NCBI GenBank assembly: GCA_963823665.1
Contig: CAWGMQ010000004.1
Location: forward strand, 2,464,001 to 2,528,000
DNA from: an uncultured Planctomycetota bacterium
Lineage (GTDB): Bacteria > Planctomycetota > Planctomycetia > Isosphaerales > Isosphaeraceae
Length of the DNA: 64,000 nt
Direction: 5' to 3'
The stretch's first letter is position 1; the number at the start of each line of letters is the position of its first letter. Below, piece by piece: positions 1,457-34,552 of the stretch. Under the pieces are notes generated by a model. It made no database searches. It was not told where the DNA came from and was given only the letters and a program-made list of their open reading frames with translations. The position numbers and the translations under genes were made by a program.

Positions 1457-3128
1457 TCATGACGGTGGTTTACGAGCCCGCCGGAAGATCTGAACGTCAC
1501 CCGTTTGCTGCTCCAAGTCGAACCAGCGCTTGGTGATCGCCTCGAGCTCTGGATCGCTTTTCCAGAACAGGACCACATCGACCGACCTGGCGTGGCTGCT
1601 CAGGAGCTCTTCCCAATCGCGCGAGCCGGGCGGCTTTGACCGCTTTGTCGTTCGGGTCGTCGTGAATCGAGATCAACTCCAGCTTGCCGGAATCGGGCCG
1701 CTCGATCTCCGGGCGGAACTGCACCGGGAAGTAATAGTGCCGGGCTTCGTAGTTGTTCCAGACCACGTTCCCGGTATCGACACCGAGCCAGTTTTCGGCG
1801 TGGAGCAGCGGATTGGCGCGAAAGCGGCCTCTTGAGCTTACGAGTAACGTGATGATTCTCTGGTCCCGGCCGACGAGGTTGCCGGCGCGGATCAGCTTGC
1901 CGGCGGTGGCGTCGGAATAGAGTGCGTAGTCCCAGACAATCGCCGCCTGGAGCGTGACCGCGAGGGTGATTGCCGCGAACACACAGCGTCCTGGCCAGCG
2001 GGATAAGTCTGCGTCAAAAACCGGCACCAAAGCAATGAAGCCGAGGAGCAGCGCCCGCTGAGGGAGGAATTCTCCGTGGGCGGGGCCGAATGAGTCAGGG
2101 CCGACGATTCCTCCGAGTAGAAGCAAGGCGGCCAGAACCATCCAGCCCTGGCGGTCATCTACTGATTTCTGCGTTTGGATCGGTTCTTGAGCGGCTGGGG
2201 CATCCGCCCGGTGCCTTTGCCTGGGGGTTTCTCTGCCGGTCATTCGAGCGTACCACCAGAGCACGAGGGCCACGGAGAGCCAGACGGCGGGAGCGAAGAT
2301 CGCAAAGGCGCGGCTCACCCGGCTTGTGAACGGCAAGCCCTCCTTCACGGCGAGCGTTATGGGATCGACCCAGCCCAGGCGCGCACCCCACAGGTTTTCC
2401 CATACCGGCTGAATTGGCGCGCTGCGCGTGGCTGCTTGCAAATAGAGGTAGCCGAGGATGAGAAGCGGCGCGAAGCTGATGGATGTTCGCAACAAGCGGG
2501 CGGTCCGGTATCTCCAGGGTTGTGTGCAGCCGTCCTGCAGCGGGCCCGCTACTGCCAGAACGATCAATCCCACCACGGTGAGCCCCAGACTGACCAGGTG
2601 GCAGAAGTATCCCAGGCAGAGTAGAAGCGCCAGCACTCCCATTCGACCGAACGAAAGCCGGTAGCGGCCCTGCCACCAGACGCCGAGGGTGATCGGGAAC
2701 AGGCAGCTTCCGATCAAGAAGCTGGTGAAGCCCAGCAGCCACGCCATGTTCATGGCGAGCAACGCAGAGAAAAGCGCTGCCAGGACCAGGCCCTTGCTCC
2801 CGCAGACGCGCCACCGGAGCCAGAGTGTGGCTGCTGCGAGACCGGCCAAGGTGATAGTGGTCATGATGCGATCGGCGATCCATGCCGGAAACTGCGTGAG
2901 GAGCCCGGCGAGCAGCAGGTGCCCTGCCCAGTTCGGGATCGGCTTCCACGCGATGGTGTAGACCAACCGGGAAGGAGATTCGGGGTCAAACGACTGGGCG
3001 AGGACCTGGGCGTTGTAGACGTGCGCTGGCCCATCCTGGGTCACGAACCAGGGCACAGCCCAGATCGCCGATAAGGGAACCGCCAGCGCCAAGGCCAGTG
3101 CCAGGAACCCAGGACAGCTCGCACGCAT
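1457..3128 (-). CDS. Multi-TM membrane protein, possibly GT-C glycosyltransferase-like; frameshift near 1625
   Basis: QDGPAHVYNA motif after the first TM and many TMs; C-terminus continues in another frame (DWEELLSSHARSVDVVLFWK...). Confidence 0.6.
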
Positions 3129-3242
3129 TTCGCGACTATAATCCATGAGTTGTCGAAGGAGGAGACGTATTGCGTCCAATCAGTCCGGGGCGCATGCTAA
3201 AAACCGTGAATCCAACCGCCGCCTCTCGAATTGAAGCACATC

Positions 3243-3944
3243 ATGAGCAACCTCACGATCGAAGTTTGGGACGCCACCGGAAACAAAAAGCAGTTGGTCG
3301 AGCTGCCGGCCGACGCACCGGTCAACCGCGTTATCGCGGTTCTCGTCGAGAAGATGAACCTTCCGAGGTACAGCCCAGACGGACAGTTGATGAGTTATAA
3401 ATTCCACCACAAGGCCAGCGGACGGCAGTTGCTCGACGACCAGACGCTTGCGTCGGCAGATATTCACAACGGCGATGTGTTGCGACTGCAACCGGAAATC
3501 ACGGCAGGCGGTGAAGAAGAGTCTTCGAGAGAGTCGGCGGTCGAGTCGCCACAAGAAGTGAAGGCGTGCCCGTTCTGTGGAGAATGGATCCTGGCCGTTG
3601 CGCGGAAATGCCGCTACTGCGACGAGTATCTCGACCCCGAGCTGCGGCGATCGGCCAGATCTGCTCCCGATGGTCTGGACCGGTTTGTGATTCCGCAGGG
3701 CCGGCCGGCCTCTGCCATCGCGAGCGGGTATCTCGGGCTCTTGTCGCTTTTTCCGTTCATTGGGTTCCCACTCGGAATCGGGGCGCTGATCACGGGCGTG
3801 GTTGCGCTCAAGACGCTGCGTGAGAATCCTCACCTTATCGGCCGGGGAAGGGCCTGGTTCGGACTGATCGTGGGGACCATCGGCACACTCTTCAGTGCGT
3901 TCATGATCGTGGTCATGGTGATCGTCGGCGTCACGAAGCGCTGA
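3243..3944 (+). CDS. Ubiquitin-like (YukD/EsaB-type beta-grasp) domain ending ...PEITAGG, fused to Zn-ribbon and DUF4190-like TM domain
   Basis: 90-aa Ubl (LLDDQTLASADIHNGDVLRL) with Gly89-Gly90 at 3507-3512, then CPFC..CRYC and two TMs with GRGRAWFG. Confidence 0.85.
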   Translation: MSNLTIEVWDATGNKKQLVELPADAPVNRVIAVLVEKMNLPRYSPDGQLMSYKFHHKASGRQLLDDQTLASADIHNGDVLRLQPEITAGGEEESSRESAVESPQEVKACPFCGEWILAVARKCRYCDEYLDPELRRSARSAPDGLDRFVIPQGRPASAIASGYLGLLSLFPFIGFPLGIGALITGVVALKTLRENPHLIGRGRAWFGLIVGTIGTLFSAFMIVVMVIVGVTKR

Positions 3945-4019
3945 GCGTGCTCGAAACGAATCCTGGACGAATACTCGGACAACGGGGCACAGTCCGGACC
4001 AGTCGGAAGGACAACGGCG

Positions 4020-5269
4020 TTGAGCGACGTGATCCGGTTGAGCGGCGATGTCCAGGGCGACCTTGACCGCTTCGCGAGGTTCCGGTTGATCAGTTGGTGG
4101 GACCAGGAGCGACTGGCCGCGGCCAAGGTGGTTGTGATCGGCGCGGGGCGCTGGGCAATGAGATCGTCAAGAACCTGGCTCTGCTGGGAGTAGGCCATGT
4201 TTTCGTGGCTGACCGCGATCGGATCGAGCACTCGAACCTATCGCGGTCGATCCTGTTCCGTGAATCGGACTGCGGCCGGCCGAAAGCCCAAGTGGCCGCG
4301 GAGCGGGCTGCAGAGGTTTACCCGTCGATCAAGGTACAGCCCTTTCTGGGAAACATAGTGCACGATCTGGGGGTTGGCATTTACCGCTGGGCCGATGTGA
4401 TTCTGGGAGGACTTGACAATCGCGAAGCCCGGGTCGCGATCAACCACGCGAGCGCCCGGGCGGGGAAGGTCTGGATCGACGGTGCGATCGAGCGTTTAGA
4501 TGGGGTCGCTCGCGTGTTTGACCCGGCGACCGGGCCTTGCTACGAGTGCACGATGGGTGTGAATGACTGGAAGATGCTCGAGGCCCGGCGAAGCTGTGCC
4601 CTGCTCTCTCGAGGGGAAATGGAGCAGGGCAAAGTGCCGACTACCCCCACCACCGCCTCGATTATTGCGGGCATCCAGGTGCAGGAAGCGGTCAAGTATT
4701 TGCACGGGCTCGAGACGATCTCAGGCCAGGGCTTCATTTTCGACGGGACATTTCATCAGAGCTACGTGGTGAGCTACACCCGCAAGGCCGACTGCCCGGC
4801 GCACGACGCCGATCAGCCGGTCGAGCCGCTTTCGCAGAAGGTTGCGTCGACCCGAGTAGGCGATTTGCTCGAGCGAGCGCGGTCGGATCTGGGGAGTGAA
4901 GCGATCATCGAACTGGGGCGGGACCTGCTCCGGTCGCTCCATTGCCCGGCTTGCCGTGAAGACGAGACCGTGTTTGCCTCCCTGGGAAAAATCACGGAAG
5001 CGCGCGGCCGCTGCCCGCGCTGCGGGGAGCCGCGAACTCCTTCCATGTTTCACTCGGTCGACGGCCGCGATTCCGATCTCCTGGAAAAGACCCTGGGCGA
5101 GATCGGCATTCCAGCGTGGGATGTTGTCCACGGCCGTGCCGGGATGGAGCAGCGATTCTACGAGTTTCAAGGCGATTCATCGCTTGTGCTGGGCGTTCTT
5201 GATCATCACCCTCGCTCGAAAGCGACGAGCGGTCCGGACCATCCCGCGATAACAGGTGCGACCTCATGA
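4020..5269 (+). CDS. E1-like ThiF/MoeB/UBA activating enzyme; frameshift in G-run at ~4146
   Basis: DRFARFRLISWWDQERLAAAKVVVIGAG joins ALGNEIVKNLALLGVG; DRIEHSNLSR, DNREAR, PCYEC, candidate catalytic Cys in RRSCALL, C-terminal CPAC/CPRC. Confidence 0.9.
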
Positions 5270-6454
5270 CGGACGAGCGTCCTCAGCCGGAAGAGCTCAC
5301 CGACGTTCGCGTGCTGGCACGCGAGAAACTAACGCATGAAGCATTTCCCGGCGGCCGCAATGAAGGCCTTCGGGTCTTCTTCACGCCGCGGGTGCACGAG
5401 GCGCTCTGGCAGCACGCCGTGTTGGACACGAGCGTCGAGATCTGCGGGGTTCTGGTGGGCACCTGGCATCGCGACGACGCGGGGCCGTTTGTGAAGATCG
5501 TGGAATCGATCCGTGGAGAGGGGGCGGAAACCCGGTTTGCCGAGGTGACGTTCACGCACCAGACCTGGGCCAAGATCAACGCCGAGATGGACACCAAGTT
5601 TTCCAAGCTATCGATCGTCGGCTGGTATCACACGCACCCGGACTTCGGGATTTTCCTGTCGGACCGCGATCGTTTCATCCACGAGCACTTTTTCTCCGGC
5701 CCCGGCCAGGTCGCGCATGTGATCGACCCGATCCGGAAAACCGAAGGGGTCTTCATCTGGCGTGGGGGCAAGCCGAGCCCATGCGAGCATTTCTGGGTCG
5801 GAGACCGAATTCTGGTCGAATCTCCGGGGGGATTTGAACAGTCAAGCGAACTGGAGGCCGGCGGGCGCTCGCATGCGGCGGCAATGCCTGGGCGGGTAGC
5901 CGCCCCGCCGCAGGGGGCAGCGCAGTGCGGCAGCGCCCTCGGGAACGATGCGCGAGTTGTTCCCGGGGCCCGGGCGGTTGATTGCGTACGCGATCGTCTT
6001 TATCCTGGGCTATCTTCTGGCTAGTATACTCTCGGCATGGGAACATCAACGCTTCGTGGAGAGTGTGCTGGCCAGCAACGGGTATATGGCCGTGCTCAGG
6101 CTAGGGCTCGCCGATGAGCTTGACGGGCTTCGCGGCGATCTGGCCGGGATGGTTCGTCCGCTCGAGGCACTGGGATCGAAGACCGACAAGCCGGAGGAGC
6201 AACTCGCCGAGATCCGTGCACAGGTCGTGACGGCACTGCGGCGGACGGATGCAATCAAAGCCCGGTATGGAAACACGTCGGCCGAGGACGACATGCTCAA
6301 ACGCATGCTCCGCGACCTCCGCGACCGCCTGATGGCCCAGCAGCAGCTTCGTTTGCCCGAGATCCCGAATCCAGAAACGTCGCCGCCAAAGGACCGGGCA
6401 AAAGACGACGGCAAAGCGGAGGCTTCCAAGGAAACCGCGACTCCCAAGTCCTGA
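5266..6454 (+). CDS. JAB/MPN+ (Mov34) metallopeptidase, probably with C-terminal TM and coiled coil (frameshift ~5915), or two overlapping genes
   Basis: EICGVLVG...GWYHTHPDFGIFLSDRD JAMM motif; overlapping ORF 5948-6454 has a TM and a helical region. Confidence 0.85.
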
Positions 6455-6516
6455 CGAGCAGAACAGCGCCGGGAAACCTCCACTGTCTGAATGCACTGAC
6501 CTACAGGGTTTGGCTC

Positions 6517-7584
6517 ATGTCGACGTCGAGCTCGCGCGAACCGATTCGCCTCACGGCGGATGACCTATTCTCACCCAAGGTCGAAGCCTTCCTTGACGAG
6601 CAGGCTGCGCTCAACCGGGCGCTGCCGGAAACGTCGCCTCAGCCGTTCATTGTTCGGGTCTTGTACTCGAGCTATTTCTATCTGAGCCTGGCGAGTGGGC
6701 TGGGGGCTTTCCTGGGCTGGCTCGTTCTCGAGCCGTTCCTCGATGACAAGCACATGGGGTGGGCCGGGTTTCTTCTGTTTCCAACTGTTGCTGCCTCGAT
6801 CGGAATGTTCCTGGGCGCAGCGGAGGGAATCATGTGCCGCAACGCCCAGCGGGCGGCGATCTGTGCGGCGGTCGGTCTGGGTGTGGGGTTTGTGGGCGGC
6901 ATCGTGTCGGTTTTTCTTGCCACCATCATGTTCACGATCACGTCGGTGATCTCGCTGGCACTCTCAAAGAAACAGCCTCAACCAGGGGAGCTGCCGACGG
7001 GCATGGGATTCCTCGTCTTCATGATGGGGAGGGCCTCGGCGTGGGCGCTCGCAGCGGTTCCGGCCGGCATTGGCCAGGGGATCGCGCTACGTGAACCAAA
7101 GGTGCTGCTCAACGGTCTGCTCGGAGGCGTTCTGGGTGGCCTGCTCGGCGGGATGGCTTTCGACCCGATTTACTTGATGTTCACGTCAAAGGACGGTGAG
7201 GCCTCGCTCAGCCGGGGCATCGGGTTGACCCTGATCGGCCTGATGGTCGGGCTGTTTGTGGGGATGGTCGAGCAATGGACCAAGTCGGCGTGGCTGCTCA
7301 TGAAAGCAGGACCGCTCGCCGGTAAGCAATTCGTTCTGTTCCGCAACCCGACGGTTCTGGGCAGCGCACCCAAGGCGGATGTTTACCTTTTCAAGGACGG
7401 GGCCATCGAGCCGCGACACGCACTGATCCACGATCGCGGCGGCCGTTTCGAAATCGAGGACATGAACACGGCGGACGGAACGTATGTCAACGGCCTGCCG
7501 GTATCCAGGCAGATCCTCAAATCCGGCGATCAGATCGTGCTGGGCAAGACCGTACTCGAGTTTGCACTCAAGGAATCGCGCTAG
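6517..7584 (+). CDS. Multi-TM membrane protein with C-terminal FHA domain
   Basis: Gly-rich TMs, then VLGSAPKADV...IEPRHALI...DMNTADGTYVNG...LKSGDQIVLG. Confidence 0.85.
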   Translation: MSTSSSREPIRLTADDLFSPKVEAFLDEQAALNRALPETSPQPFIVRVLYSSYFYLSLASGLGAFLGWLVLEPFLDDKHMGWAGFLLFPTVAASIGMFLGAAEGIMCRNAQRAAICAAVGLGVGFVGGIVSVFLATIMFTITSVISLALSKKQPQPGELPTGMGFLVFMMGRASAWALAAVPAGIGQGIALREPKVLLNGLLGGVLGGLLGGMAFDPIYLMFTSKDGEASLSRGIGLTLIGLMVGLFVGMVEQWTKSAWLLMKAGPLAGKQFVLFRNPTVLGSAPKADVYLFKDGAIEPRHALIHDRGGRFEIEDMNTADGTYVNGLPVSRQILKSGDQIVLGKTVLEFALKESR

Positions 7585-7604
7585 CGTTAATTGTGGAGGG
7601 TCTT

Positions 7605-8183
7605 ATGGCCATTTCCTTTCAGTGTCCTCAATGTGGGAAGAAGCTCAAGGCACCAGACAATGCCGCGGGCAAGTCGTCGAGCTGTCCGGGCTGCGGCAAT
7701 AAGGTGACGTGCCCGGAGCCGGTCTATGACGCCGAAGTCGTCGAGATGGAGATGGCGCCGGATAAACCGAAAGGGTTTGATCCATTCGCAGACATGGACG
7801 ACGACAAACCCTACAAGGTTGCCGGTACCCCACCGCCTACGGAGTCGGCTGATGACGGTCGCCGCCCCTGCCCGATGTGCGGTGAGATGATCGTCGCGAC
7901 GGCTGCCAAATGCCGGTACTGCGGCGAGGTGTTCGACCCGACCCTGAAGAAATCGAAGTCCAAGAAGAAGAAGAAAAGGCACAGTCCGGAAGATGAAGAA
8001 CTTTCTGGTAGCGAAATTGCCGTCGCCATACTTTGCTCAGGCATCGGCTGCATCGCCGGCATCGTCTGGATGATACAGGGAAAACCCAAGGGATTGAAGA
8101 TGGTCGGAATTTCGATCGGCATGGTCATCGTATGGAACATTATCAATGTGGTTATCCGATTTACGTTGTTGAACCAAAACTGA
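7605..8183 (+). CDS. Double Zn-ribbon membrane protein with poly-Lys tract
   Basis: CPQC..CPGC, CPMC..CRYC, KKSKSKKKKKR and C-terminal TMs; GGAGG RBS. Confidence 0.8.
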   Translation: MAISFQCPQCGKKLKAPDNAAGKSSSCPGCGNKVTCPEPVYDAEVVEMEMAPDKPKGFDPFADMDDDKPYKVAGTPPPTESADDGRRPCPMCGEMIVATAAKCRYCGEVFDPTLKKSKSKKKKKRHSPEDEELSGSEIAVAILCSGIGCIAGIVWMIQGKPKGLKMVGISIGMVIVWNIINVVIRFTLLNQN

Positions 8184-8202
8184 GTGGGAGCGTCGTCGGC
8201 CG

Positions 8203-8928
8203 ATGCCTGCCATTGTTTCCTGTAACTGCGGTGCCCGAATCAAGGTGCCTGAAGGAGCGCGGCCGGATGCCATGCTTCGGTGCCCGCGCTGCAAGGCCGA
8301 GATTGTGCTGGCCGGCGAGGGCCGGATCGTCACCGCGAAACTGGCCGATCCCGCGACGATGGGAGGAATCTGCGCGGTATGTCAGTCGGCCGTGAGCCCT
8401 GGGGAGGCCGTGCTGGCTTGCCCCAGTTGCGACCAGTTGCATCATCGCGAGTGCTGGAACGAAGTGGGCGGGTGTGCAACGTACGGCTGCGAGAATGCGC
8501 CGGCAACGGAAAAAGCGGCCGCGTTCGAGGCACCACGGACTGCATGGGGTGAAACCAAGAAGTGCCCCGCCTGCGGCGAGACGATCAAATCGATTGCTCT
8601 GCGCTGCCGTTACTGCGGCACCGATTTCGACACGGTTGATCCCCTCACGCTCAAGGACCTTAAAAAGCAGGTTGTGGGCGAGGAACGGCTGCAGACGACA
8701 AAAACGCTGGTGATCCTGTTTTTCGTGCTCAGTGTGCTGGGCTGCCCAGCCCCGATCGTGGTGGTTGCCGCCTCCTGCTACGTGCTGCTCAAGCACAAGA
8801 CCGTTGCCAAGGCCGGGCCGGCCTATCTGGTCATGGGCTATTCCGCGATCGCGATCTCCGCTTTATATTCGATATTATTCTTGTTGTTCTTTATCGGCTC
8901 ACAGATGGGAACAGCTCGCGCCCCGTAG
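8203..8928 (+). CDS. Prokaryotic RING-finger (E3-like) protein with Zn-ribbons and C-terminal TMs
   Basis: CAVC-x12-CPSC-x3-HHRECW...GGCATYGC, matching Prok-RING family 1. Confidence 0.85.
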   Translation: MPAIVSCNCGARIKVPEGARPDAMLRCPRCKAEIVLAGEGRIVTAKLADPATMGGICAVCQSAVSPGEAVLACPSCDQLHHRECWNEVGGCATYGCENAPATEKAAAFEAPRTAWGETKKCPACGETIKSIALRCRYCGTDFDTVDPLTLKDLKKQVVGEERLQTTKTLVILFFVLSVLGCPAPIVVVAASCYVLLKHKTVAKAGPAYLVMGYSAIAISALYSILFLLFFIGSQMGTARAP

Positions 8929-9013
8929 GCGACGGGCTCGAGCGACGGGCCAGGGGCATCAAATCGTTACAACCTTGCCCGAGCGGGAGCCAGACCGTAA
9001 GGAGATCATTCCG

Positions 9014-10387
9014 TTGGACGCGGCAGGCGCGAGGTCATTGATCGCTTGTCCACGCGAGGTGGGCGCGGAGTGCCCTCACTGCGCGGCCGACGTCGTGCTG
9101 GGCGACCCGATCATGGTCTGCCAGGCGTGTGGGACGGTTCACCATCGGGCATGCTGGCGGGTTCATGATCGGTGCGGGGCCTATGCATGCGCGCCCGGGC
9201 GGCGTGACTCACCCGAGCCACGGCACTCCGACGCGGTTTTGACGATCACCCAAGCCGAGATCGAGCGCGCGGTGCCGCTGGCTCCCGCGATTCGTCCCAT
9301 GTTCGGCGCCCAGAGTCCAGGTGGCGGGGCGTTTCCGCCCCCGGTGCCGACCCGCGCGGGCTGGAACGGCCTGGCGATTGCTTCGTTCATCTGTGCTCTC
9401 GCGGGCATTCCGCTTTTTGGACTCATCACCGGGATGGTCGCGGTTGTGCTGGCCGTCATTGCGCTCGGCGCGATCCGGGCCAGCTCACAGCGCGGGCTGG
9501 GGCTGGCGCTCGGAGGCCTGTTGCTCGGTTTGGTGGACGTGGTGGGGTGGATTGCGCTCATTGTGATGCTGCTGCCTGGGTTTTTTAGTCGCGAACTGCC
9601 GGCGGACCTGCACTTTTCGGAGGCACCGCCGGATCTTTCCGCGATCCGGGAGCTTGCGCCGCCGCTCCAGCGCGCGATGAGAGCCAATGTGCTGATCGAG
9701 CGGCACACCGGGATTGCCGCGCTGGGCGGTAAGGCTGTCGGCTCGGGAGTGATCTTGCAACTGAGCGACGGCGAAGCCCTGATCGTCACGAACCGGCATG
9801 TCGTCGATGACGAATTCCCTGCGTCGCACAACGATGCCGCTCAAGCCGACCATCTCACCCGGCTCGGCAAGATGTCGGTCACGTTGCTGGACCAGCCGAA
9901 ACTTGAAGGCCAAGTCGTCTGGCTTGCTCCCGGGCAAATCGACCTGGCGATGATCCGCGTTCGCTGCAGTCCGTCCGGTCAGGCGAGGGATGCTGCGTGG
10001 GAGCGAGGCCGGCCCATGAAGGTGGGGGAGACGGTTTTCGCGATCGGCAATCCCTATCAGCTCGGCTGGACGCACACGCAGGGTGTGATTTCACAGATGC
10101 GCTCCCAGGATTTCGACTTGCATCGCGTGCGGGTGATCCAGATGCAGGCGGCGATCAACCCCGGCAACAGCGGTGGGGGTCTTTACGACAGCGACGGCTA
10201 TTTGCTCGGCATCAATACGTGGACAGCCGACAAGAGCGTGAGTGAAGGAATCGGCTTTGCGATTGCGCTCGACAGCCTGCTCGAGCTGGCCCCGCCGCCG
10301 CTTGCGCCGCGGCCGGAGAAACCAACGGCGGCACCGGCGGAGAAAACCCCCTCCAAGACAGCTCACACCAAGAGAAGCGCGCCATGA
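9014..10387 (+). CDS. RING finger - DUF4190-like TM - trypsin-like (S1C) serine protease fusion
   Basis: CPHC..CQACGTVHHRACW..CGAYAC; TMs; triad motifs TNRHVV, IDLAMI, INPGNSGG; TTG start after AAGGAG. Confidence 0.85.
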   Translation: MDAAGARSLIACPREVGAECPHCAADVVLGDPIMVCQACGTVHHRACWRVHDRCGAYACAPGRRDSPEPRHSDAVLTITQAEIERAVPLAPAIRPMFGAQSPGGGAFPPPVPTRAGWNGLAIASFICALAGIPLFGLITGMVAVVLAVIALGAIRASSQRGLGLALGGLLLGLVDVVGWIALIVMLLPGFFSRELPADLHFSEAPPDLSAIRELAPPLQRAMRANVLIERHTGIAALGGKAVGSGVILQLSDGEALIVTNRHVVDDEFPASHNDAAQADHLTRLGKMSVTLLDQPKLEGQVVWLAPGQIDLAMIRVRCSPSGQARDAAWERGRPMKVGETVFAIGNPYQLGWTHTQGVISQMRSQDFDLHRVRVIQMQAAINPGNSGGGLYDSDGYLLGINTWTADKSVSEGIGFAIALDSLLELAPPPLAPRPEKPTAAPAEKTPSKTAHTKRSAP

Positions 10388-11136
10388 GCACGGTCCGCCT
10401 GCGACGGCTGCACGCCGATTACGAGAAGATCCAGGAATACATCAAGGGGCATCCAAGGCTCCAGTTGATTCAGGTCGATGGGTCGCCGCCGGAGCGCTAT
10501 CAACTCGAGTATCGGATTCGCGGATTGCGCCAGACGGCCGACGAGCTGTCGATCGTGAAGAGCCACATGGTGGAAGTTTCGCTGCCGGTTAGCTATCCGC
10601 GGCTGCCGCCGCAATGCCGGATGCTCACGCCGATCTTCCATCCTAACATAGCACCCCATGCGATCTGCATCGGCGACCACTGGAGCCCAGGAGAGCCGCT
10701 GTGGTCGATCGTGGCGCGAATCGGCGAGATGATCGCCTACCAGAGCTACAACACCAAGAGCCCCTTGAACGGCGAGGCCGCACGATGGGTCGACCAGCAT
10801 GTGGATGAGCTGCCACTCGACCCAGTAAGCATGATGCCCGACGACGCGATGGCCTCCAGTGCCGGCGCGCCAGCTTCACGGCCGGCGGCAGCCACTTCAG
10901 CGACAAATTCACCGCGGCCGTCTGCCCAGGTCAGGCCAACGCCGGGCGTGCCGCCAACCTCACGGCCGGTGGAAAGTCACACGCGACCAGAGGCCTCACC
11001 TCCGCCGGTGCCATCACCGGTCGGCAGTGAATTCGCCTGCCCGCAATGTGGGGCCTTATTGAAGTTGAAACCGGAGCTGGCCGGGAAGCAAGTGCGATGC
11101 CTTCGTTGCAAGACGGTGTTTCGGATTCCGCTCTGA
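10384..11136 (+). CDS. Ubiquitin-conjugating enzyme E2 (UBC fold) with Pro-rich linker and C-terminal Zn-ribbon
   Basis: RLRRL..DY, YPRLPP, TPIFHPNIAPHAIC (HPN and catalytic Cys), W.P, SPLNGEAA; CPQC..CLRC. Confidence 0.9.
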   Translation: MSTVRLRRLHADYEKIQEYIKGHPRLQLIQVDGSPPERYQLEYRIRGLRQTADELSIVKSHMVEVSLPVSYPRLPPQCRMLTPIFHPNIAPHAICIGDHWSPGEPLWSIVARIGEMIAYQSYNTKSPLNGEAARWVDQHVDELPLDPVSMMPDDAMASSAGAPASRPAAATSATNSPRPSAQVRPTPGVPPTSRPVESHTRPEASPPPVPSPVGSEFACPQCGALLKLKPELAGKQVRCLRCKTVFRIPL

Positions 11137-11192
11137 TAAGCGAGCTTCCTCTGGAAGAGGAAGACGATGCGCCGGCGCGCGCCCGGCGCCGG

Positions 11193-11609
11193 ATGAAACG
11201 CCACCGCGAGGTGCTGCTGATCTCATGCGCTGTCTGGCTTCTGGCTTTCTCGCTGCATGAGCTTCCCGACGGGCGCGTCGCGGTGCGCGGATTACCGCAA
11301 TTTCCGTTACCTCAGACATGCATGTCGCGGGCGATTTTTGGCCTGCGGTGCCCGGGCTGCGGGCTGACGCGATCGATCATTCATCTGGCACACGGTGACT
11401 GGCGGGCTTCGTGGCATGACCACCGGCTGGGCGGTCTGCTCGGGATCGTGATCGCGCTCCAGATCCCTTACCGGCTTTACGCGCTACGGAGACCTGAGCA
11501 AGAGGTGCTGCCCTCGCGCTGGCAGGCTGCGATGGGATATGCGCTGATTGGTCTTCTCTTGGCGAACTGGCTGTTGGATGTGGCGGCGGGGCGGTTGCGG
11601 TCGCCATAA
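11193..11609 (+). CDS. DUF2752 membrane protein
   Basis: C...FGLRCPGCGLTRS motif with TMs; start may lie further upstream. Confidence 0.75.
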   Translation: MKRHREVLLISCAVWLLAFSLHELPDGRVAVRGLPQFPLPQTCMSRAIFGLRCPGCGLTRSIIHLAHGDWRASWHDHRLGGLLGIVIALQIPYRLYALRRPEQEVLPSRWQAAMGYALIGLLLANWLLDVAAGRLRSP

Positions 11610-19493: not shown

Positions 19494-22400
19494 TCACGTC
19501 GATAGAGTGGGCCGCCGACGAACCAGTTCAGCAAATCGACGGCGCTCTGGATGCAGCACGCCAATCCGCACCGCACTCCCAGCCGCTGACTTGGTCGATG
19601 AGCTCCTCGAGACAGATACCTGCGCCCGGGTCGACGTTTGTGCTCTCGCCATCGCCGGCCCCTGCCGGATGGCAGCAGCCGTGTCGGAGACCCGCGCGAG
19701 CGTTACCGGCGGCGGGCCGATCGGCAGTCCTGGCGAGAACGGATAGCGCTGGATCTCGAACGGCGGGTCCTTCATTGTGACCAGCACGTCTCCGAATTGA
19801 CCCAGACCGTAAACCGAGTAGCCCAGGTAGGCCCGCCCGGTGCCGTGTTTGCCTTGCTTGACGGTGCCGGTAAGAACCGTATGATGCCGCACCTCGCCGA
19901 CCAGCACCAGCCGCTGGCCCTGGCCTGACTCGGTGAGCAGGTCTTCAACGTAACCGCCATGCTCCACGCCGAAGCTGACCTTGTTTCCCCCGGCATCCTT
20001 GTAACTCAGATGTTTGCCCTGGGCGAAGAGCGCCCTGAAATTGGTGCCCGGGTGGCCCGCTCCCAGGCCGGCGAGCAGGTTGCCGCCGACGTCCGTGACT
20101 CCGCCCGCGGTGCCCTTGATCAGCAGGCTGTAAAACACATTCGACAACAGCGGCTGCATAGGAACCAGCGTCACTGTCCAGTTCACCGGATTATAAGCAG
20201 GCGCATAGAGAGCCTGTTGCGGACCCGTCGCGCTGAACGTTCCCTGGTGGCCCACGAGCGCCACTGCAAAGTTGGCCGGGTTGGTCGCGGTGGCCGCTGC
20301 AAGCGGCTCGCTGAAGCTCAGGATGAGGCTCGTGATCGTTTTCGCCGTGCCGGTCCATTGCACGGCCGTGACAGTGGGCGAGTTGGTGTTCGGGTTGAGG
20401 TCTTTGATCGTCAGGATCGCGCTGCTAAGTGCGCCCAGAAGCGCGCCATCCCCCGGACCGGCGAGCGCCAGGCCGACTGTCTCGTCGTGGCTGTCGTATG
20501 GATCGTCCAGCACCGGGACTGAAACGGTCTCCTGCGCGACGCCCGCCGGGAAGACGACCGTCTCCGCGGTCGGCGTGTAATCGAGGCCGGCAGTCGCAGT
20601 CATCGGCACCGTCGTGAAATTGACGGAGACCTGCCCAAGCTGGCCATCCGACCTGACGACCTCAATGTCGGCGAACCCCGCGTTGTCGTCAACCTCGTAG
20701 TTGGGCGCACTGAACTGCAAATCGCCCGGCCGGTCAGTGACGGTCGACGTCACTGTTGCAGTCGCCTGGCTCGGCGTTCCGTTAAATTCGTTGGCGGTGA
20801 CGCTCATCGTGGAAGTGAGCTCACCGATCGCTGCTTGCTGGGGCGTGACCACGATGGTGACGTTCACACTTGCCCCGACCGCCAGGCTGCCGATGTCGGC
20901 CCGCAGGTCTGGTCCCGATTGATTCACCGGCCCGCTGACACCCGATGAGCCCGGCTGCAAAACCCAGTTCCCCGACACAAAATCGACATCAGAGGCCAGT
21001 GGGAAAGCGAGAGTCACTCCGGTGGCCGGCGACGGACCGTTGTTGGTGATGACCGCTCTGTAGGTCAGCTCGTCAGCGAATTCGACGGGATCTGGCGACG
21101 CTGTGAATTGAGTAATCGCGAGGTCGGCCATGGGAAGGATCGGCGTCGAGACCATCGCGGTGTTGGAGCTTGCGTTGAACTCGTTGGTCGTGACGACCGC
21201 CATGTTGACGATTGGCGAGTCGGCCACTGCCGATTCAGTCGAAACGACGGTGATCGTCAGTATTGCTGAGGTATTGATGGTCAAGGTGCCGAATGTCGCG
21301 GTCACCTGTCCGTTTTGAATCGACGCGTTCAGCCCGGCCACCGACGTGGTGGCTATCACGTTCGAGGTTATGTCCGGCGGCAGCGTATCGGTCACGATGA
21401 CCCCGGTGGCAATTGAAGGGCCGCTGTTCTTTGCAGTGATCGTGTACGTCAGATTCTTGCCGACGTAATTCGGGCCGGGCGGGCCCGTCATTTGAAGCCC
21501 GACGCCGGTCACTGCCGTGACCGTGGTCTCCACCGAGGCCGAATTGTCAGGGTTGTCATTCGACGGAGAGCTGATGGATGCGCTATTGGTTATTGTGCCC
21601 GTGCCGCTCCCCGCGGCGGCCGCGGTCGGCGTCACGACGATGGTGATGGTGGCCGTGGCGCTCGCCGGCAGGTTGGCGAGCGGCATCGTGAGAATACCGC
21701 CCGATGGAGTCGCGCCGCCCGTGGCCGACACGAAGGACACGTTTGCCGGCAGCTCGTCGGTCACGACCGCGGCCGGGTCGGCCGACGGCCCGCTGTTGGT
21801 CGCCTTAATCGTGTAGGTCAGATTACTGCCCGCGCCGACCGAATCGGGGTTGCCCGACATCGTGATCGAAAGGTCGGTCACCGGGGCCACCGGCACCGAG
21901 TTCATCACGGTGTTCGGGTTCGGGTTGTACTCGTTGTCGGTCACGGTCACGCTGTCGACGAGCGGCGAGTCGGATACCGCGGCAAGCGTGGGCACGACCG
22001 TGATGGTCATGCTGACACTGTCGCTCTGGTCAAGCTCGCCGAAGCTTGCGTTGACCTGGCCGCCGGATACGCTCGCCGTCACCCCCGACACCGACGTGGT
22101 GGCGATCACGTCAGAGGTGATGTCTGCCGGCAGCGCATCGGTCAAGACCACGCCGGTCGCGTTCGACGGACCGTCGTTGGTGGCCGTGACGGTAAAGGTC
22201 AGGTTCTGCCCGACCTGGGCCAGGGTCGGAACCGCGCTTAACTGCAAGCCGATGGCGGTCACCTCGAAGACCATCGTGGTCGTCGAGGCCGAATTGTCCA
22301 GGTTGGCGTTGTACATCCCGGTGATGACCGCGCTGTTTGTGATCGTGCCGGTTCCGGAGCCGGCCGCCGCCGCGGTGGGCGACACGACGATGGTGACGGT

Positions 22401-25400
22401 CGTGGTGTCGTTGGCCGCCAGCGTGCCGAGGGGCAAGGTCAGCACGTCACCGGACGGAGTCACGCCGTTTGTGGCCGACACAAAGGTCACATTTGCAGGC
22501 AGCGTGTCGGTCACGACCGCGTCCGGGTCGGGCGACGGGCCGCTGTTGGTCGCCTGAATTGTGTACGTCAGCTCGCTGCCGGCGCCGACCGGGTCGGGCG
22601 TGCCCGACATCGTGATCGAGAGGTTGCTCACCGGCACGGGCTGAACCGTCGTCATCACCGGGGGCGGCGTGTTGTTGCTCGGGTCAGGATCGTACGTGCT
22701 GCTGGAAACCGTCGCGCTGTCGCTGATCTGGGGGATCGACGAGGTGTCGGTCTCGACCGTGATCGAAACGGTCGCGGTCGCGCCCGCGGCCAGCGTGCCC
22801 AGGTCGGCCGTGACCTGGCCGCCGGAAATGGTCGCCGTCACACCCGGCACCGACGTGGTTACCGTCACGTTCGACGTGATGTTCTGCGGTAGCGTGTCGG
22901 TCACGTCGACGTCGGCCGCGTCCGACGGGCCGGCGTTGGTCGCCGTTAACAAGTATGTGACAGTATTACCGGCGATCACGGCGTCCGGGCTTCCGCTCAA
23001 GGTCAGGCCAAGGTCGGCAGAGGGATCCACCAGGGTCGTCACTGAGTCGGTGCTGTTGCCCGGGTTCGGATCAAAGTCAGCACTCGTGACGCTCGCCATG
23101 TCAGTGATTTGTGGGATGGCGCTATCCGTCGGAACGACGGTGATGGTGAGCGTGGCGAAGGTGTTACCCCTCATCGTGCCGAAATCGGCGGTCACCACGT
23201 CGCCGTCGATGCTGGGCGTCACGTTTGGATCCGACGCGACTGCTGTCACGTTCGAGCTGATGCTCTGCGGCAGCGTGTCCGTCACGTTCACACCGGTGGC
23301 ACCTTCTGACCCGATATCCGTGACCGTCACGGTGTACGTCAAAGTGCCGCCGACATAGACTGAGGGAGTCGGCGAGGCGGTGACCTGTACGGCGACGTCG
23401 GCACTCGGCACCGCAACGATGTCCTGCGAAAACTCGGACGTATTGCCCAGGGGGTCGGTCGCGGTGGCCGAGATCACCCAGCCGGCCGGCGTGGGGGTGT
23501 TCAGCACGGTGTCGAAGCTCGCGTTGTAGTCGGCCCCGGTCGTAACGGTCGTGCTGCCGAGGTACTTCTGGCCCTGGCCGTATCCCGAAGGGTCGGCGGT
23601 GGCACTTGCAAAAAACTGCACGAGATAGGTCGTGCTGGCCGAGGCGTTCAAGGTGCCGATGACCTCGGTCGTCGTTGCCGTATACGCCGCCTGGGTCAGA
23701 ACCGGATAGTTCTGGAAATCGTTGTTTTGAGGGAGTGTGAATCCTTGTTCGTCGAGATGGTTCGGAGTTGGTCCGCCAGGCCCCGGTGGGGCACCTAACA
23801 GGGAGATCCCCAGGCTGCCGTTGTCGTAGATCGAGTTCGAGAGGAAGGAATTGTGATCGTTGTTGGAAACGACCACGATCCCTTGGTTCACGTTGTTGGT
23901 GATCACGTTGCCGGCCCCTTGGGCTGTGCCGCCGATCGTGATGTTGCTTGCCACGAGATCCACGCCGTTACTCTTATTGCCGAGGTCGTCGCCAGCCGAG
24001 TCGGTGCCGATATAGTTGCCCAGAACGACCAATCCATCGGCCTCGCCGGAGTACTCAGCGATTCCGTCTTGGTCGTTGGCCGAGATCACGTTCGCCGCGC
24101 TTGCGACCGTGCCGCCGACCGTGCTATCGCCCGGGACACTGATGCCGCTGCCCACGTTCGGCAGTGGATTCCTACCGGTGACGTCCACCCCAATCAGGTT
24201 GCCTTCCATCAGCTCGCCCACCGTCTTACCCGTTAGGCTATCGATCCCGGTTCCGTTGTTGCCCGAGATCACGTTTCCCGCGCCGCTGACGGTCCCCCCG
24301 ACAGTCGCATACGACGCACCGAAAAACTGAACGCCGGAATAGTTGCCAAGCGCGATCTTGCCGGTCACATCGGTGCCGCAGTAGTTGCCTTCGACGAGAT
24401 CGCCGATGCCGTTGCCCAGCGCGACGCCCGATTCAACATTGCCCGAGACGATATTTCGTGCCGCCGCCGCCGTGCCGCCGATCGTAATGTCGTCGGCACC
24501 ATCCAGCAAGACACCGTTAATGCCGTTGCCGAGGATGCTCGTAGCTCCCGTCGCAAGGCCGATGATGTTGCCCTCGATCAGCCCCCCCGTATCGTAGGTC
24601 GGGGCGGCAAACCGCCCCAGGTTGATGCCGTTCTGCAAATTGCCGGAGATCAGATTGGCCGAGCCTTTCACGGTCCCCCCGATCGTCATCCCGGTTGCAC
24701 CTAAGGCCTGGATTCCGTCCTGGACGTTCGGCACTGCCGCGGTGCCCGCCAGATTCGTGCCGATCGTGCTCGACTGAATGACTGTGTTGCTTGTCCCCGG
24801 GTCGAGCAGGACGCCGCAGATGGAGTTGCCAGAAATCAGGTCGCCGGTGATCGTCGTGCCCGTCACCCCGCCCAGATGGATTCCATTCAAGGTGTTGGGA
24901 ATCGCGACGGTCCCAGTGGAGTCGGTGCCGATCAGGTTATTCGCGATCAGATTGGTCGAAGAGGGCCCGTTGACCTGCTGAATCAGGATCCCTTCGCCGG
25001 TGTTGCCCGAGATCACGTTGCCGCTGATCGTGTTCTGCGATGCATCATCCAGCAGCAACCCGTCTTGCCCGTTGCCCAGCGCAGCGCTCCCGCTCGCTTT
25101 GATTCCGATGTAATTCCCTTCGACCAGATTGCTGTCGGTTGCCTGGGCATCGCCGATCGCGATTCCCTCATTCGTATTGCCCGAAATGACGTTCCGCGCA
25201 GCGGCGGTCGAGCCCCCGATCGTATTGCTGGCTGACCCAAAGATCTCGATGCCCACCCCGTTGGCCTTGGCGTTCGCACCGTCGGCTGTCCCGACGTAAC
25301 AGCCCTGGATCACGTCGTTTCCGCTGCCGGTCACCAGAATCCCCACGCCCGGACAGCCGGAGACGGCCAGGCCTTGAATCGTGCTCGATGCCGCCGCGTC

Positions 25401-25769: not shown

Positions 25770-26057
25770 GGCATTTCCTCGTGTTGACAATCCACACGAT
25801 GCAATAATCAAGTCTCGCGCAACGAGAATCTGACACCTCGCTATGGTATAGGCGCCGCCATCACCGCATTCAGGGCGCTGCCGTTTGCGATTCTTTGCCA
25901 ATGAAGTCCGGATCGGCGAGATTCCCTCGCCTCCGACAAACGTCGAACGACCAGCGATCGATGCCCATTGAAATTATCGAAGGGACATGCCTGCGTGAAG
26001 TGATTGATGCCGGGCATAGGCAGCCGCGTTCGAGTCTGGGCCGATTCCCGCGTTTTG

Positions 26058-33382: not shown

Positions 33383-34552
33383 CTACGATTTGGGTCCATC
33401 CAGAATAACCTCGCGAACCGTTTCGGCGTCGTCCGCACGCAAGGCCAGCTCGCGTATCTGATCGCCGATCAAGATTCGGCACTGGTAGATGTCGGCTCGC
33501 ACCTGGAGTGATTCCTTCACCTTGTCCTCCTTGCCAAGCAAATTCGTTGCGGTCGTCGCCAGAAACGATCGGACCCGCAAGGCACGGAACTGGCGAGTGA
33601 CCGCTTCGATCTTGTAAAGGATATCCGCACCGGGATCATGGTCTTGTGATCCGGACTTGCATTCGATCATCGACAATCCGTGATTATGCATGAACGCCAC
33701 GTCGAAGTCGTTACCCGATGGGTCGCCGCATCGACCGACTTCCAAGCCGAGTCGGACGTCCCAAATTCCGAGCGAGTCAGAATGCCTCACCAGAAGAGTC
33801 CAGAAGAACACCTCCAACCAACCGCCTGTGAGGAATTCGACCTCATACTTGGTCAGTTTTCTGGTCGGCACGCCGTCGAGCCAGATCTTTCGAAGTTCGT
33901 CTTTCGCTTCACCTGGAAAACGAAACTTCTCCGCTGATAACTCGACGCCCTTTTCGCGTGCTTTTCGTCGCTCGTCATCGTTGAGTGACAGAATCTCGCG
34001 ATCGGTTGCGTGTTGCGCCAGGAGTTCGGCGGAGCGTGCCCCCTCAACCGCACGCCGTTCCGCCTCTGCCATCTTGTCGTCGGCTTTCCTCGACTCGAAG
34101 CCGTAACCCGCGAGGAACTCCTTGATCGAAAGCCTGTGGCTGCACTCTTGCGTTTCGCCGCTCTCGATGTCGATCAGAGATGCGGGCCGCACCACATTGG
34201 TATAGATCAAGTTGCCGCCAAGGGCCTTGAAAAACTCGTGGGTCGCGATGCTCATGGGCTTGGTGCCGCCAGTGAGATTGGCAATCCATTCAGCGGAGGG
34301 GAACTTGCCGTAGGCTCGCTGCAATGCCTGCCGCACAGCGGTGAGGTTGTCCTCGGCGGCGAGCGGCTCGATATGGTGTCGCGAGCCATAATCCAGATCG
34401 CCGTGTTTGAGCGCCTTCAAAAAATGGCTTGCCACTTCACGCTTCTTCATGTGATCCGACTCGAGCAATACGAGTTGATCAGGCTTGTAGTGATGCACCG
34501 AGAGCAGGTTCGGCACGTGCTGGTCGGAAAGGAGGCAGAATAGAACCTTCAT
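33383..34552 (-). CDS. CARF plus DUF1887 PD-(D/E)xK nuclease (Card1/Can2 family)
   Basis: LLSDQHVPNL, ANLTGGTKPMS (CARF), GGWLE, NDFDVAF...MIECKSG. True start is MKVLFC at 34552; the ORF-track extension overlaps cmr6. Confidence 0.9.
   Translation of the reverse strand: MKVLFCLLSDQHVPNLLSVHHYKPDQLVLLESDHMKKREVASHFLKALKHGDLDYGSRHHIEPLAAEDNLTAVRQALQRAYGKFPSAEWIANLTGGTKPMSIATHEFFKALGGNLIYTNVVRPASLIDIESGETQECSHRLSIKEFLAGYGFESRKADDKMAEAERRAVEGARSAELLAQHATDREILSLNDDERRKAREKGVELSAEKFRFPGEAKDELRKIWLDGVPTRKLTKYEVEFLTGGWLEVFFWTLLVRHSDSLGIWDVRLGLEVGRCGDPSGNDFDVAFMHNHGLSMIECKSGSQDHDPGADILYKIEAVTRQFRALRVRSFLATTATNLLGKEDKVKESLQVRADIYQCRILIGDQIRELALRADDAETVREVILDGPKS

Follow-up and report, generated by a model that had tools for sequence, protein, structure and literature searches.

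The window analysed here is a stretch of 64,000 nucleotides, of which positions 3243 to 11609 hold nine genes in one orientation (plus strand). In order, they encode a YukD-type ubiquitin-like protein (Ubl), an E1, a JAB peptidase, a membrane protein with an FHA domain (TM-FHA), a zinc-ribbon-TM protein, RING protein 1, RING protein 2 with a trypsin domain, an E2, and a DUF2752 protein. The tight packing described in an earlier note on this DNA was borne out, with ATGA overlaps at 5266-5269 (E1/JAB) and 10384-10387 (protease/E2). The features are listed below.

3243 to 3509, plus strand: Ubl domain, YukD family, 89 amino acids (aa), predicted mature end ...LQPEITAG (Gly89) (Pfam, model, 80 of 80 relatives)
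3510 to 3944, plus strand: in-frame Ubl precursor tail with linker, zinc ribbon and DUF4190 TM helices (Pfam, hydropathy)
4020 to 5269, plus strand: E1 with ThiF/UBA fold, C3H zinc site and an RRSC stretch holding the candidate catalytic Cys, plus an extra C-terminal domain that bears another zinc ribbon (Pfam, alignment)
5266 to 6454, plus strand: JAB/JAMM peptidase with TM helix and coiled C-terminal part (Pfam, hydropathy, alignment)
6517 to 7584, plus strand: multi-pass membrane protein ending in an FHA-fold domain without the pThr-binding residues (Pfam, hydropathy, alignment)
6544 to 6567, plus strand: IRLTADDL motif, N-terminal in the TM-FHA protein
7605 to 8183, plus strand: accessory gene, two zinc ribbons and C-terminal TM helices (Pfam, hydropathy)
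8203 to 8928, plus strand: RING protein 1 (candidate E3) with zinc ribbon, Prok-RING_1, zinc ribbon and TM helices (Pfam, alignment, model)
9014 to 10387, plus strand: RING protein 2 with Prok-RING_1, DUF4190 TM helices and a trypsin-like protease (Pfam, hydropathy)
9239 to 9262, plus strand: LTITQAEI motif in RING protein 2
10384 to 11136, plus strand: E2 with UBC fold, HPN86-88, Cys95, Pro/Ala-rich linker and C-terminal zinc ribbon (Pfam, alignment)
11167 to 11609, plus strand: DUF2752 membrane protein with a CPGCGLTRS motif (Pfam)

Pfam searches returned YukD (5e-11) and DUF4190 for the Ubl gene, ThiF (2.5e-46) for E1, JAB (6.6e-12), FHA (1.5e-13), Trypsin_2 for RING protein 2 (5.7e-19), UQ_con for E2 (3.2e-11) and DUF2752 for the last gene (4.5e-17). 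Both RING genes, as had been claimed, scored above the Pfam cut-off for Prok-RING_1 (5.5e-10 and 1.3e-9; 39.5 and 38.3 bits against 29.1). E1, E2 and the N-terminal JAB ORF showed no hydropathy peaks, and all other products did; the statement that every component except E1 and E2 has TM helices therefore holds for most of the kit but not for that ORF, nor for the mature Ubl, which is predicted to be soluble.

Pfam and synteny place Ubl, E1, E2, JAB and Prok-RING all in one gene neighbourhood. Whether gene order is conserved in relatives had been raised as a check, and the core order is retained in 32 of the 49 Planctomycetota loci with at least 9 kb downstream, while E1 lies no more than 1.2 kb from Ubl in 72 of 74 loci; the neighbourhood is thus not due to chance. 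Contigs of a gut Clostridia type carry the same kit in a rearranged order.

The Ubl is modelled as a beta-grasp ubiquitin fold (pLDDT 81.5), with ubiquitin, SUMO and NEDD8 as the best fold matches (E 2e-4 to 1e-3). The earlier note had described a Ubl with GG, and this did not survive the comparison: the domain ends in PEITAG, with a single Gly after Ala, in 80 of 80 relatives, followed by a stop (9 of 80) or by any tail, and a second Gly follows Gly89 in 14 of 80 only. The GG of the present ORF is internal, at residues 89-90 of 233 aa. The tails beyond PEITAG measure 0 to 422 aa, and the position after the Gly is taken by any of nine residues or by a stop, so that Gly89 would be the functional end, which calls for a cutter; because the tag ends in Ala-Gly rather than GG, with a tail behind it, JAB must mature the tag. 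Of 74 Clostridia-type loci, 73 show the same pattern: 17 have a stop, 36 a short tail, 17 a zinc-ribbon tail and 3 some other long tail. In the present operon the tail forms a zinc-ribbon/TM anchor, and elsewhere it is a lipoprotein; the zinc-ribbon/TM tail is fused to Ubl in L054, L060, L064, L065 and P0005, and 13 other loci encode it as a gene of its own. A public-run contig is identical over 3477-3928, and dN/dS is 0.009 for the Ubl domain and 0.12 for the tail. JAB would thereby remove the membrane anchor from the Ubl, leaving the TM helices in the precursor only. JAB maturation after Gly has been demonstrated for BubAB (PMC11601596) and for the Caldiarchaeum pro-ubiquitin (PMC5654768).

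The JAB motif HxH-x7-S-xx-D, described earlier as intact, is conserved in relatives. As assembled, however, JAB consists of two ORFs (5266-6024 and 5948-6454), the domain being severed from the TM/coiled-coil half by a 1-nt indel near 5918; the closest relative encodes it in a single ORF of 391 aa. E1, with an inferred TTG start, has a 1-nt indel after 4144, within the GxGxxG codons, so that the P-loop is split over two frames. The operon is therefore complete, as had been stated, for the family but not in this assembly. The candidate catalytic Cys and the zinc sites claimed for E1 are conserved, and its P-loop is broken in this copy: G41, G43, G46, C174, C177 and C193 (L054 numbering) are invariant in 33 of 33 aligned relatives, and C193 is what we take to be the catalytic Cys from its position in UBA2/UBA3. 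The best PDB sequence matches of this E1 are UBA7, UBA1 and UBA3, ahead of ThiF and MoeB. It has a single adenylation domain (about 416 aa) and a conserved extra C-terminal domain of ∼130 aa, for which sequence searches gave zinc-ribbon matches only and no ubiquitin-fold (UFD) identity.

The E2 has the HPN and Cys that had been noted; all 36 sequences keep both HPN and Cys95, and in the PDB it is eukaryotic E2s that match it best by sequence. RING protein 1 has eight invariant ligands in a C4HC3 arrangement (C57 C60 C73 C76 H81 C84 C91 C96). The RING model best matched the RNF12 RING (Z 6.0, rmsd 3.0, 64 aligned), in a tie with a C1 domain (Z 5.5); Foldseek gave no match to it at E<=0.001, and weak fold matches include the HRD1, gp78 and RNF13 RINGs (Z 3.8-4.6). 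The PF14446 (Prok-RING_1) description, as we understand it, already cites TM helices. A complex model of E2 with the ZnR-RING scored 0.71 against 0.00 for the best of 3 controls, above a threshold that 116 of 157 solved pairs and 2 of 215 mismatched ones attain. Its runs agree in at least 98% of contacts, with partner pLDDT at least 62, and the contacts involve E2 residues 2-15, 72-73 and 99-105 and RING residues 57-62 and 81-100, the invariant R8 touching Q61. The modelled RING uses the canonical E2 face (helix 1 / L4 / L7), although the model may owe its pass to likeness to solved E2-RING pairs. RING protein 2 (TTG start inferred; ORF open from 8732) has an H/D/S triad in its trypsin domain and no PDZ hit. 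This domain probably lies outside the membrane.

The FHA domain had been proposed to provide a phospho-input, and this finds no support in the alignment. Compared with GarA/OdhI, where the criteria are the Arg after Gly, the Ser of SxxH and the Asn of NGT, all three pThr-binding positions differ, with S in place of R, E in place of S and D in place of N. None of 57 orthologues has the Arg or the Ser, and a consensus of 45 Clostridia-type domains likewise carries other residues there. E2 and TM-FHA form a single ORF in 43 of the 44 Clostridia-type loci containing both. Judged from sequence, TM-FHA would be a membrane scaffold with no phospho-input. The zinc-ribbon/TM accessory gene is present in ∼1-4 copies among relatives. 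DUF2752, found in 30 of the 49 loci with at least 9 kb downstream, starts either at 11167 (out of frame through a 1-nt indel near 11182) or at the in-frame ATG 11193, and the indel touches this start only.

Prok-RING_1 tri-ligase operons were predicted in 2011 by Burroughs, Iyer and Aravind, as cited in PMC4197634, PMC3417536, PMC7159879 and PMC10557695, so the caveat that RING-containing bacterial versions had already been predicted was right. The present operon, in a Planctomycete, unites the five components of that class (E1, E2, JAB, Prok-RING_1, YukD-like Ubl); carriers of such uncharacterised operons, as listed in PMC4197634, are Planctomycetes, Actinobacteria and Acidobacteria. The class is thus a 2011 prediction; in the present copy, the tag is made as a membrane-tethered precursor. 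Our literature search found no experimental study of the RING-containing class and, with the 2011 prediction known through citing papers, no description of a tag ending in Ala-Gly, of a precursor tethered by TM helices or fused to a lipoprotein, of a degenerate FHA or of E2 fused to TM-FHA.

Like the Caldiarchaeum subterraneum and eukaryotic Ub-E1-E2-RING-Rpn11 cascade, as set out in PMC5654768, the operon combines a pro-Ubl predicted to be matured by JAMM, a Cys E1 and an HPN/Cys E2; the RING sits on the canonical E2 face in the model, and the Ubl model matches CsUb (6fnn/6fj7) among others. Unlike that cascade (Gly-Gly, RING-H2), it has an Ala-Gly end, a C4HC3 RING, membrane-anchored RINGs and JAB, an extra trypsin domain and TM-FHA and zinc-ribbon/TM genes, and we found no proteasome link. 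It would share with Bil (BilABCD), Bub and type II CBASS Cap2/Cap3 the Ubl/E1/E2/JAB chemistry in which JAB bares a terminal Gly; those systems work without an E3, whereas here there are two RINGs and a mostly membrane-bound kit, and RING-containing operons are called uncharacterised (PMC10557695, PMC11601596). Bil (IAD-AAD-CYS E1, CEHH E2, no E3) was rejected because of the single adenylation domain, UQ_con E2 and two RINGs, with a BilD match of only 1e-5 over a short stretch; Bub (Tyr/Ser oxyesters, E1/E2 without catalytic Cys, DUF6527 protease) because both Cys are invariant and there is no DUF6527 hit; and type II CBASS (Cap2 E1-E2 fusion with a CD-NTase) because E1 and E2 are separate, with no nucleotidyltransferase among the operon hits. 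ERAD membrane ligases and PA-TM-RING E3s (Hrd1, gp78, RNF13), with Ubc6 and Ubc7-Cue1, resemble the kit in outline, by analogy only, in having a TM-anchored RING and a membrane-held E2, and differ in that no retrotranslocation ATPase or proteasome is linked here. Genome G000 (92% complete) contains no Pup ligase and one PF00227 match only, so there is no obvious degradation route for tagged proteins.

From the observed gene content, motifs, synteny, selection and folds, and from the modelled E2-RING contact, we infer the following chemistry, topology, substrates and role. The membrane-anchored JAB would cut the precursor after Gly89, releasing a soluble Ala-Gly Ubl and a membrane zinc-ribbon/TM protein. 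Soluble E1 would adenylate Gly89, form a thioester on the RRSC cysteine and hand the Ubl to E2 Cys95. The TM-FHA scaffold would keep E2 at the membrane, where it would bind the two TM-anchored C4HC3 RINGs; these would direct it onto lysines of membrane substrates, with the zinc-ribbon/TM accessory proteins selecting which substrates are tagged. Membrane-localised Ubl-E1-E2-RING-JAB conjugation up to this point, proposed in the earlier note and supported by motifs, synteny, purifying selection and the passing E2-RING model, is very probable whatever its role. The trypsin domain at the outer face would then cut the outer part of the substrate, or would itself be switched by tagging, and JAB would take the tag off.

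As to role, we tentatively favour a reversible membrane-bound ligase cascade marking the cell's own membrane proteins, for envelope quality control or envelope-stress signalling, a reading that falls a little short of an even call. A household role is favoured by the extreme conservation of the tag (dN/dS 0.009), by the lack of conserved defence or mobile genes among neighbours of the Planctomycetota loci (the flank here is zwf/opcA), by E1 matches of a paralogous kit in 33 of 36 family genomes, and by the protease's best NCBIfam matches, DegP/DegS/HtrA, all well under cut-off.

The same chemistry could instead serve defence, with the membrane complex sensing phage entry or phage membrane proteins and tagging them or triggering the protease, which we regard as possible if doubtful. 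Defence or a mobile element fits better than a household role with the patchy spread (type A, that of this operon, in 16 of 400 phylum genomes; any-type Ubl matches in 3 of 7 g48 genomes, within one genus) and with the neighbours of 74 Clostridia-type loci, where HTH (26), IrrE/Peptidase_M78 (24) and integrase (18) genes recur, one member of each family being named and many loci being close kin. Integrative elements, however, normally carry HTH with IrrE as their regulators, too. The accessory zinc-ribbon/TM genes and outside cargo vary rapidly among loci; Bil and type II CBASS act against phages, the same is suspected of Bub (PMC10557695, PMC11601596), and CapH+CapP pairs lie beside 31% of Bub operons (PMC11601596). 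Against this, PADLOC gave weak domain matches to E1, JAB and protease (best 4.8e-10) and none to Ubl, E2, RINGs or FHA, and the tag appears far more conserved than usual arms-race genes.

It is conceivable, though rather unlikely, that in a membrane-embedded E1-E2-RING pathway of this kind the tag has a second use, capping the N-termini of membrane and secreted proteins until it is removed, as in the ubiquitin-fusion precursors of eukaryotes, while the phospho-blind FHA scaffold holds the E2. JAB cleavage would then supply the tag and free a zinc-ribbon/TM protein or expose a lipoprotein signal peptide, and the outside protease would complete an ERAD-like disposal or signalling step. If true, a free-living bacterium would have a RING E3 of its own, and the pathway would offer a model for pre-eukaryotic ubiquitination at membranes.

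That the family is functional and this genome's copy a recent pseudogene, with real frameshifts, is improbable. Two essential genes are broken as assembled, no identical-strain contig spans either site (nearest end at 4130, 4142, 5896), and a second kit in the same genome (L042) could substitute. Yet all three breaks sit in G runs or CG/C repeats, the contig of a relative carries the extra G at 4144, and in the closest relative single bases break the frame at other places (FHA start, protease). Among 22 loci sharing one isolate-name prefix, 12 show frame switches, against 0 of 58 others (grouped by eye), and dN/dS is 0.08 in E1 and 0.20-0.22 in the two halves of JAB, a both-lineage average that still allows a very recent break. 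The one-base frameshifts are probably assembly errors.

Like YukD/EsaB of type VIIb secretion, the operon pairs a Ubl of the same Pfam family with FHA at the membrane, and in PMC12637312 YukD acts non-covalently in a secretion machine, touching the YukB FHA domains of the T7SSb core. That our Ubl is likewise not ligated, being an assembly factor on the non-phospho FHA scaffold or a thiocarboxylate carrier, is highly improbable given the invariant terminal Gly, E1 Cys and E2 Cys95, an E2 that sulfur transfer has no place for, E1 scores (C-terminal 369 aa) far under the ThiF (98.6 vs 275), MoeB (88.6 vs 449) and UbaA (77.6 vs 450) cut-offs, which also led us to reject a ThiS/MoaD/SAMP system, the absence of EssC/YukB ATPase, WXG100 or other secretion components from the operon, and of sulfur or cofactor biosynthesis enzymes from its Pfam hits and recurrent neighbours.

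Whether a complete E1-E2-RING cascade operates in bacteria on proteins of the cell itself, and at the membrane, is now testable, with the predicted cut site, catalytic residues and modelled E2-RING interface specified. Because of the Ala-Gly end, the di-Gly remnant proteomics proposed earlier would miss conjugates. The present copy is a poor bench template owing to its assembly breaks; the cultured strain Lacipirellula limnantheis I41 (L125) carries a copy free of frame switches.

All nine genes of the operon (3243..11609) lie on the plus strand at the positions first noted, in the order Ubl, E1, JAB, TM-FHA, zinc-ribbon-TM, RING 1, RING 2 with trypsin, E2 and DUF2752, and the ATGA overlaps are present at E1/JAB and protease/E2. 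Pfam assigns every part (YukD and DUF4190, ThiF, JAB, FHA, zinc ribbons, two Prok-RING_1, UQ_con and DUF2752) and places the trypsin domain on one of the two Prok-RING_1 proteins. The earlier note gave transmembrane (TM) helices to every product except E1 and E2, which holds for the others apart from the N-terminal JAB ORF, also without a TM-like stretch by simple hydropathy. The host genome, G000, comprises 16.46 Mb in 12 contigs. A promoter scan found none, with 1.6 expected, and the 12 terminator-like sites found by scanning (6.6 expected) are all within genes.

An alignment search of GTDB with the Ubl gave 171 confirmed relatives, and the best 80 of these, 79 from Planctomycetota groups and 1 from Riflebacteria, were analyzed; all counts that follow include kin, whose loci are not independent. 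E1 starts within 1.2 kb after the Ubl in 72 of the 74 loci with enough flanking sequence. Where at least 9 kb of downstream sequence is available (49 loci), E1 is found in 48, JAB in 47, FHA in 45, RING in 36, protease in 35, E2 in 33 and DUF2752 in 30, and the core order is present in 32/49. Among the other 17, rearrangement or truncation accounts for some, and several carry extra accessory genes, which may place the end of the operon beyond the sequence available. An evenly drawn set of 400 further genomes from the phylum gave a Ubl match in 33, of the type of the window operon (E<1e-37) in 16. E1 matches occur in 33/36 genomes of the family, 8 of them of the window type (55 to 91% identity) and the remainder an ∼40% paralogue from a shorter kit with the order RING-Ubl-E2-E1-JAB. 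G000 has such a kit too, at ∼2.70 Mb of contig C4 (L042:5763-11388), consisting of TM/Prok-RING_1, Ubl, E2, E1 and a JAB with TM and coiled regions; its Ubl ends in VVAG plus 3 aa, and E1s of its type occur in most family genomes. A second group of 74 loci, called Clostridia-type from two source labels, has the reshuffled order [RING]-Ubl-E1-E2::TM-FHA-protease-JAB-RING-JAB. At two of its loci (L137:6503-8971 and L164:7931-8668), integrase, HTH and IrrE/Peptidase_M78 genes lie immediately upstream; the IrrE/Peptidase_M78 product has a Cys-rich end and a TM-like stretch.

The Ubl model has a ubiquitin fold (pLDDT 81.5; 28 structure matches at E≤0.001), and its best matches are ubiquitin, SUMO, BilA and Caldiarchaeum Ub. 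The earlier reading of a Ubl ending in GG had to be given up, as the predicted mature end is Ala-Gly in all relatives. PEITAG is present in 80/80, while the next residue varies (A 16, S 16, only 14 with G, R 10, stop 9, T 4, V 4, L 3, Q 2, N 1 and I 1) and the tails beyond it range from 0 to 422 aa; this combination identifies Gly89 as the predicted functional end, the second Gly of the window's GG being incidental. Two Ubl paralogues have VAG followed by a stop.

The window's own tail, 144 aa with a zinc ribbon and a DUF4190 TM region, is fused in 4/80 loci, whereas in 13 it is encoded by a gene of its own directly after the Ubl. We rejected an assembly artifact as the origin of this fusion given a public-run contig, possibly of the same sample, that is identical across the Ubl/tail junction (3477-3928), and an independent 233-aa Ubl-TM fusion (P0005) that stands for a cluster of 6. 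An internal GTG near 3558 could provide a separate start for the tail. BubAB and Caldiarchaeum pro-ubiquitin are both shown to be cleaved behind their terminal Gly by a JAB-type enzyme, according to passages in PMC11601596 and PMC5654768, respectively, and PMC7159879 proposes that in a related tri-ligase system JAB frees a Ubl from a larger protein. In the Clostridia-type group, the 73 tails parsed after AG are absent in 17, short in 36, zinc-ribbon in 17 and otherwise long in 3. Read by eye, a lipoprotein-like signal directly follows AG in 5/24 proteins taken from the 150 matches listed and in loci L191 and L205; in these (P0085, P0086, P0088, P0089, P0090, L191 and L205) unrelated outside domains come next, mostly with no Met in between. 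At L058 (10001 onward) and L036 (3913 onward) and in P0002, the Ubl is continuous in frame with E1 (422-aa tail), which may reflect either an assembly indel or a genuine Ubl-E1 precursor. Related Ubls are also seen in other architectures: a Ubl-E2 fusion, CHAT-Ubl-Hint-Ubl, tandem Ubls and Ubls before an unrelated domain (P0134, P0140, P0112 and P0141).

In 33 aligned E1s the P-loop glycines, C174/C177/C259/H262, C193 and the second zinc ribbon are invariant (numbering of the related locus L054), and a profile search ranks UBA7, UBA1, UBA3, UBA6 and UBA2 ahead of ThiF and MoeB; searches for a UFD in the E1 C-terminal domain returned zinc-ribbon matches only, with Atlas scores below 0.8. HPN and Cys95 are invariant in 36 E2s, the closest matches to the E2 are eukaryotic E2s (1e-8), and the catalytic motifs are conserved in 66 JAB and 37 trypsin orthologues. 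RING 1 has eight invariant ligands in a C4HC3 arrangement, the pattern described for prokaryotic RINGs in a passage of PMC11354881. Its model (pLDDT 83) fits the RNF12 RING (Z 6.0, rmsd 3.0, 64 aligned) and a C1 domain (Z 5.5) about equally well, the former being the top match, and Foldseek with this model gave no matches at E≤0.001. A complex model of E2 and RING 1 scored 0.71, against 0.00 for the top of three controls, and the reference mark for this score is reached by 116/157 solved versus 2/215 mismatched pairs. At least 98% of contacts agree between runs, with a partner pLDDT of at least 62, and the interface joins E2 residues 2-15, 72-73 and 99-105 to RING residues 57-62 and 81-100, the zinc ribbon lying outside it. 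These E2 residues form the usual RING-binding face of E2s, and the model may therefore pass by likeness to solved pairs. It tips the RING/C1 tie toward an E3 and supports E2 binding without proving it.

The earlier note also proposed a phospho-input through the FHA domain, which the residues argue against. Compared with its nearest solved relatives, GarA and OdhI, GRHP is replaced by GSSP, SRRH by EPRH and LNGT by ADGT, and the pThr Arg and Ser are absent from 57/57 orthologues and likewise from the Clostridia-type consensus; the replacement surface is near-invariant. E2 and TM-FHA are a single protein in 43/44 Clostridia-type loci that have both, and we read TM-FHA as a putative membrane scaffold of E2. 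Two cytoplasmic linkers of operon proteins carry a short motif:

6544-6567, plus strand, IRLTADDL
9239-9262, plus strand, LTITQAEI

With a regular expression picked after examples had been seen, the motif (hydrophobic-x-hydrophobic-T/S-x-x-D/E-L) occurs at the N terminus of 22/57 FHA proteins (4.3 in shuffles; 30/59 by locus), in 29/42 protease-bearing ORFs (2.6 in shuffles), mainly in the linker, and in 41/45 Clostridial E2-FHA linkers (4.9 in shuffles). The motif could serve as a docking strand. According to a passage in PMC12637312, FHA domains are bound by YukD in type VIIb secretion, which makes Ubl-FHA binding in the window operon a lead by analogy.

The operon is real and is a variant of a predicted kind, the Prok-RING_1 class. 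As noted earlier, RING-type bacterial operons had been predicted: a passage of PMC4197634, citing Burroughs 2011, places uncharacterized operons related to the Caldiarchaeum one in Actinobacteria, Planctomycetes and Acidobacteria. Excerpts of PMC10557695 call RING-containing operons rare and uncharacterized, and those of PMC3417536 propose them as mobile, restriction-modification-like elements; PMC11601603 and PMC4678705 contributed citations alone. No experimental study of RING-type operons was found in the CC-licensed PMC and bioRxiv literature. Membership in Bil, Bub and CBASS was rejected in each case. The kit would work like the eukaryotic and Caldiarchaeum cascades but differs in that its tag lacks a di-Gly end. 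Features that may be new are an Ala-Gly precursor carrying membrane or lipoprotein cargo, the fusion of E2 to TM-FHA and the modeled E2-RING contact.

In the mechanism we propose, JAB would mature the tag, E1 and then E2 would hold it as thioesters, the TM-anchored RINGs would ligate it onto membrane proteins and JAB would reverse the tagging, a scheme that as a whole we hold with high confidence. The trypsin-like protease probably faces outward, given three TM helices after the cytoplasmic RING in the window and an N-terminal hydrophobic leader plus C-terminal TM in the Clostridial protease. For the cellular role, we tentatively favor envelope quality control or signaling, at slightly less than even chances and ranked slightly above defense. 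Anti-phage defense is a real possibility, at somewhat over one chance in three, in view of the patchy spread, the precedent and the HTH/IrrE/integrase neighbors at Clostridia-type loci; the very conserved tag, household flanks and lack of defense neighbors, together with the near-universal family paralogue, count for the envelope role. PADLOC gave generic domain matches only on the operon, and 21 pattern matches in viral contigs included no relatives. A sulfur carrier reading was rejected, and G000 (91.9% complete) gave no match to a Pup ligase.

As assembled, E1 runs from its N terminus to GAG in one frame and from ALGNE onward in another, and JAB is split into two ORFs, one with the JAB domain and one with the TM/coiled half. 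These breaks are likely assembly errors, because the indels differ between genomes, the breaks cluster under one isolate prefix, dN/dS is low and a relative's contig carries the extra G at 4144. In an alignment with locus L034 of the same-genus genome G001 (83% identical), indels of a single base disrupt G000 at three places (after 4144, near 5918 and near 11182), and others, after 6537 and 9393, disrupt G001 instead. Frame switches in E1, the JAB domain, the FHA protein or the protease affect 12/80 related loci, all among the 22 with a common isolate-name prefix (0/58 among the remainder), and dN/dS against L054 is 0.009 to 0.22 across all 12 segments tested. In public sequencing runs, the extra G at 4144 is present in one relative's contig; the 4 of 13 runs examined contained no identical contig bridging either frameshift (E1 or JAB), no RNA runs were listed as containing the sequence and shares in DNA runs were at most 0.17. 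An upstream membrane protein without a Pfam match (1497-3179, minus strand) shifts frame near its end relative to L034, and an FAD oxidoreductase (52788-54540, minus strand) forms two ORFs instead of one, both probably through further single-base assembly errors.

Elsewhere in the window, type III-B CRISPR Cmr genes (RAMPs, Cmr2/Cas10 and Cmr3) with a CARF-Card1 nuclease lie ∼22 kb from the operon (33386-41209, minus strand). An NB-ARC and TPR protein (46614-49313, plus strand) adjoins a Bax-inhibitor-1-like gene (45622-46641), and the minus strand also encodes an ORF with a Ser/Thr kinase domain (29205-30125) and a surface protein of 2135 aa that contains DUF11 repeats, a beta-helix and Calx-beta (19497-25901).
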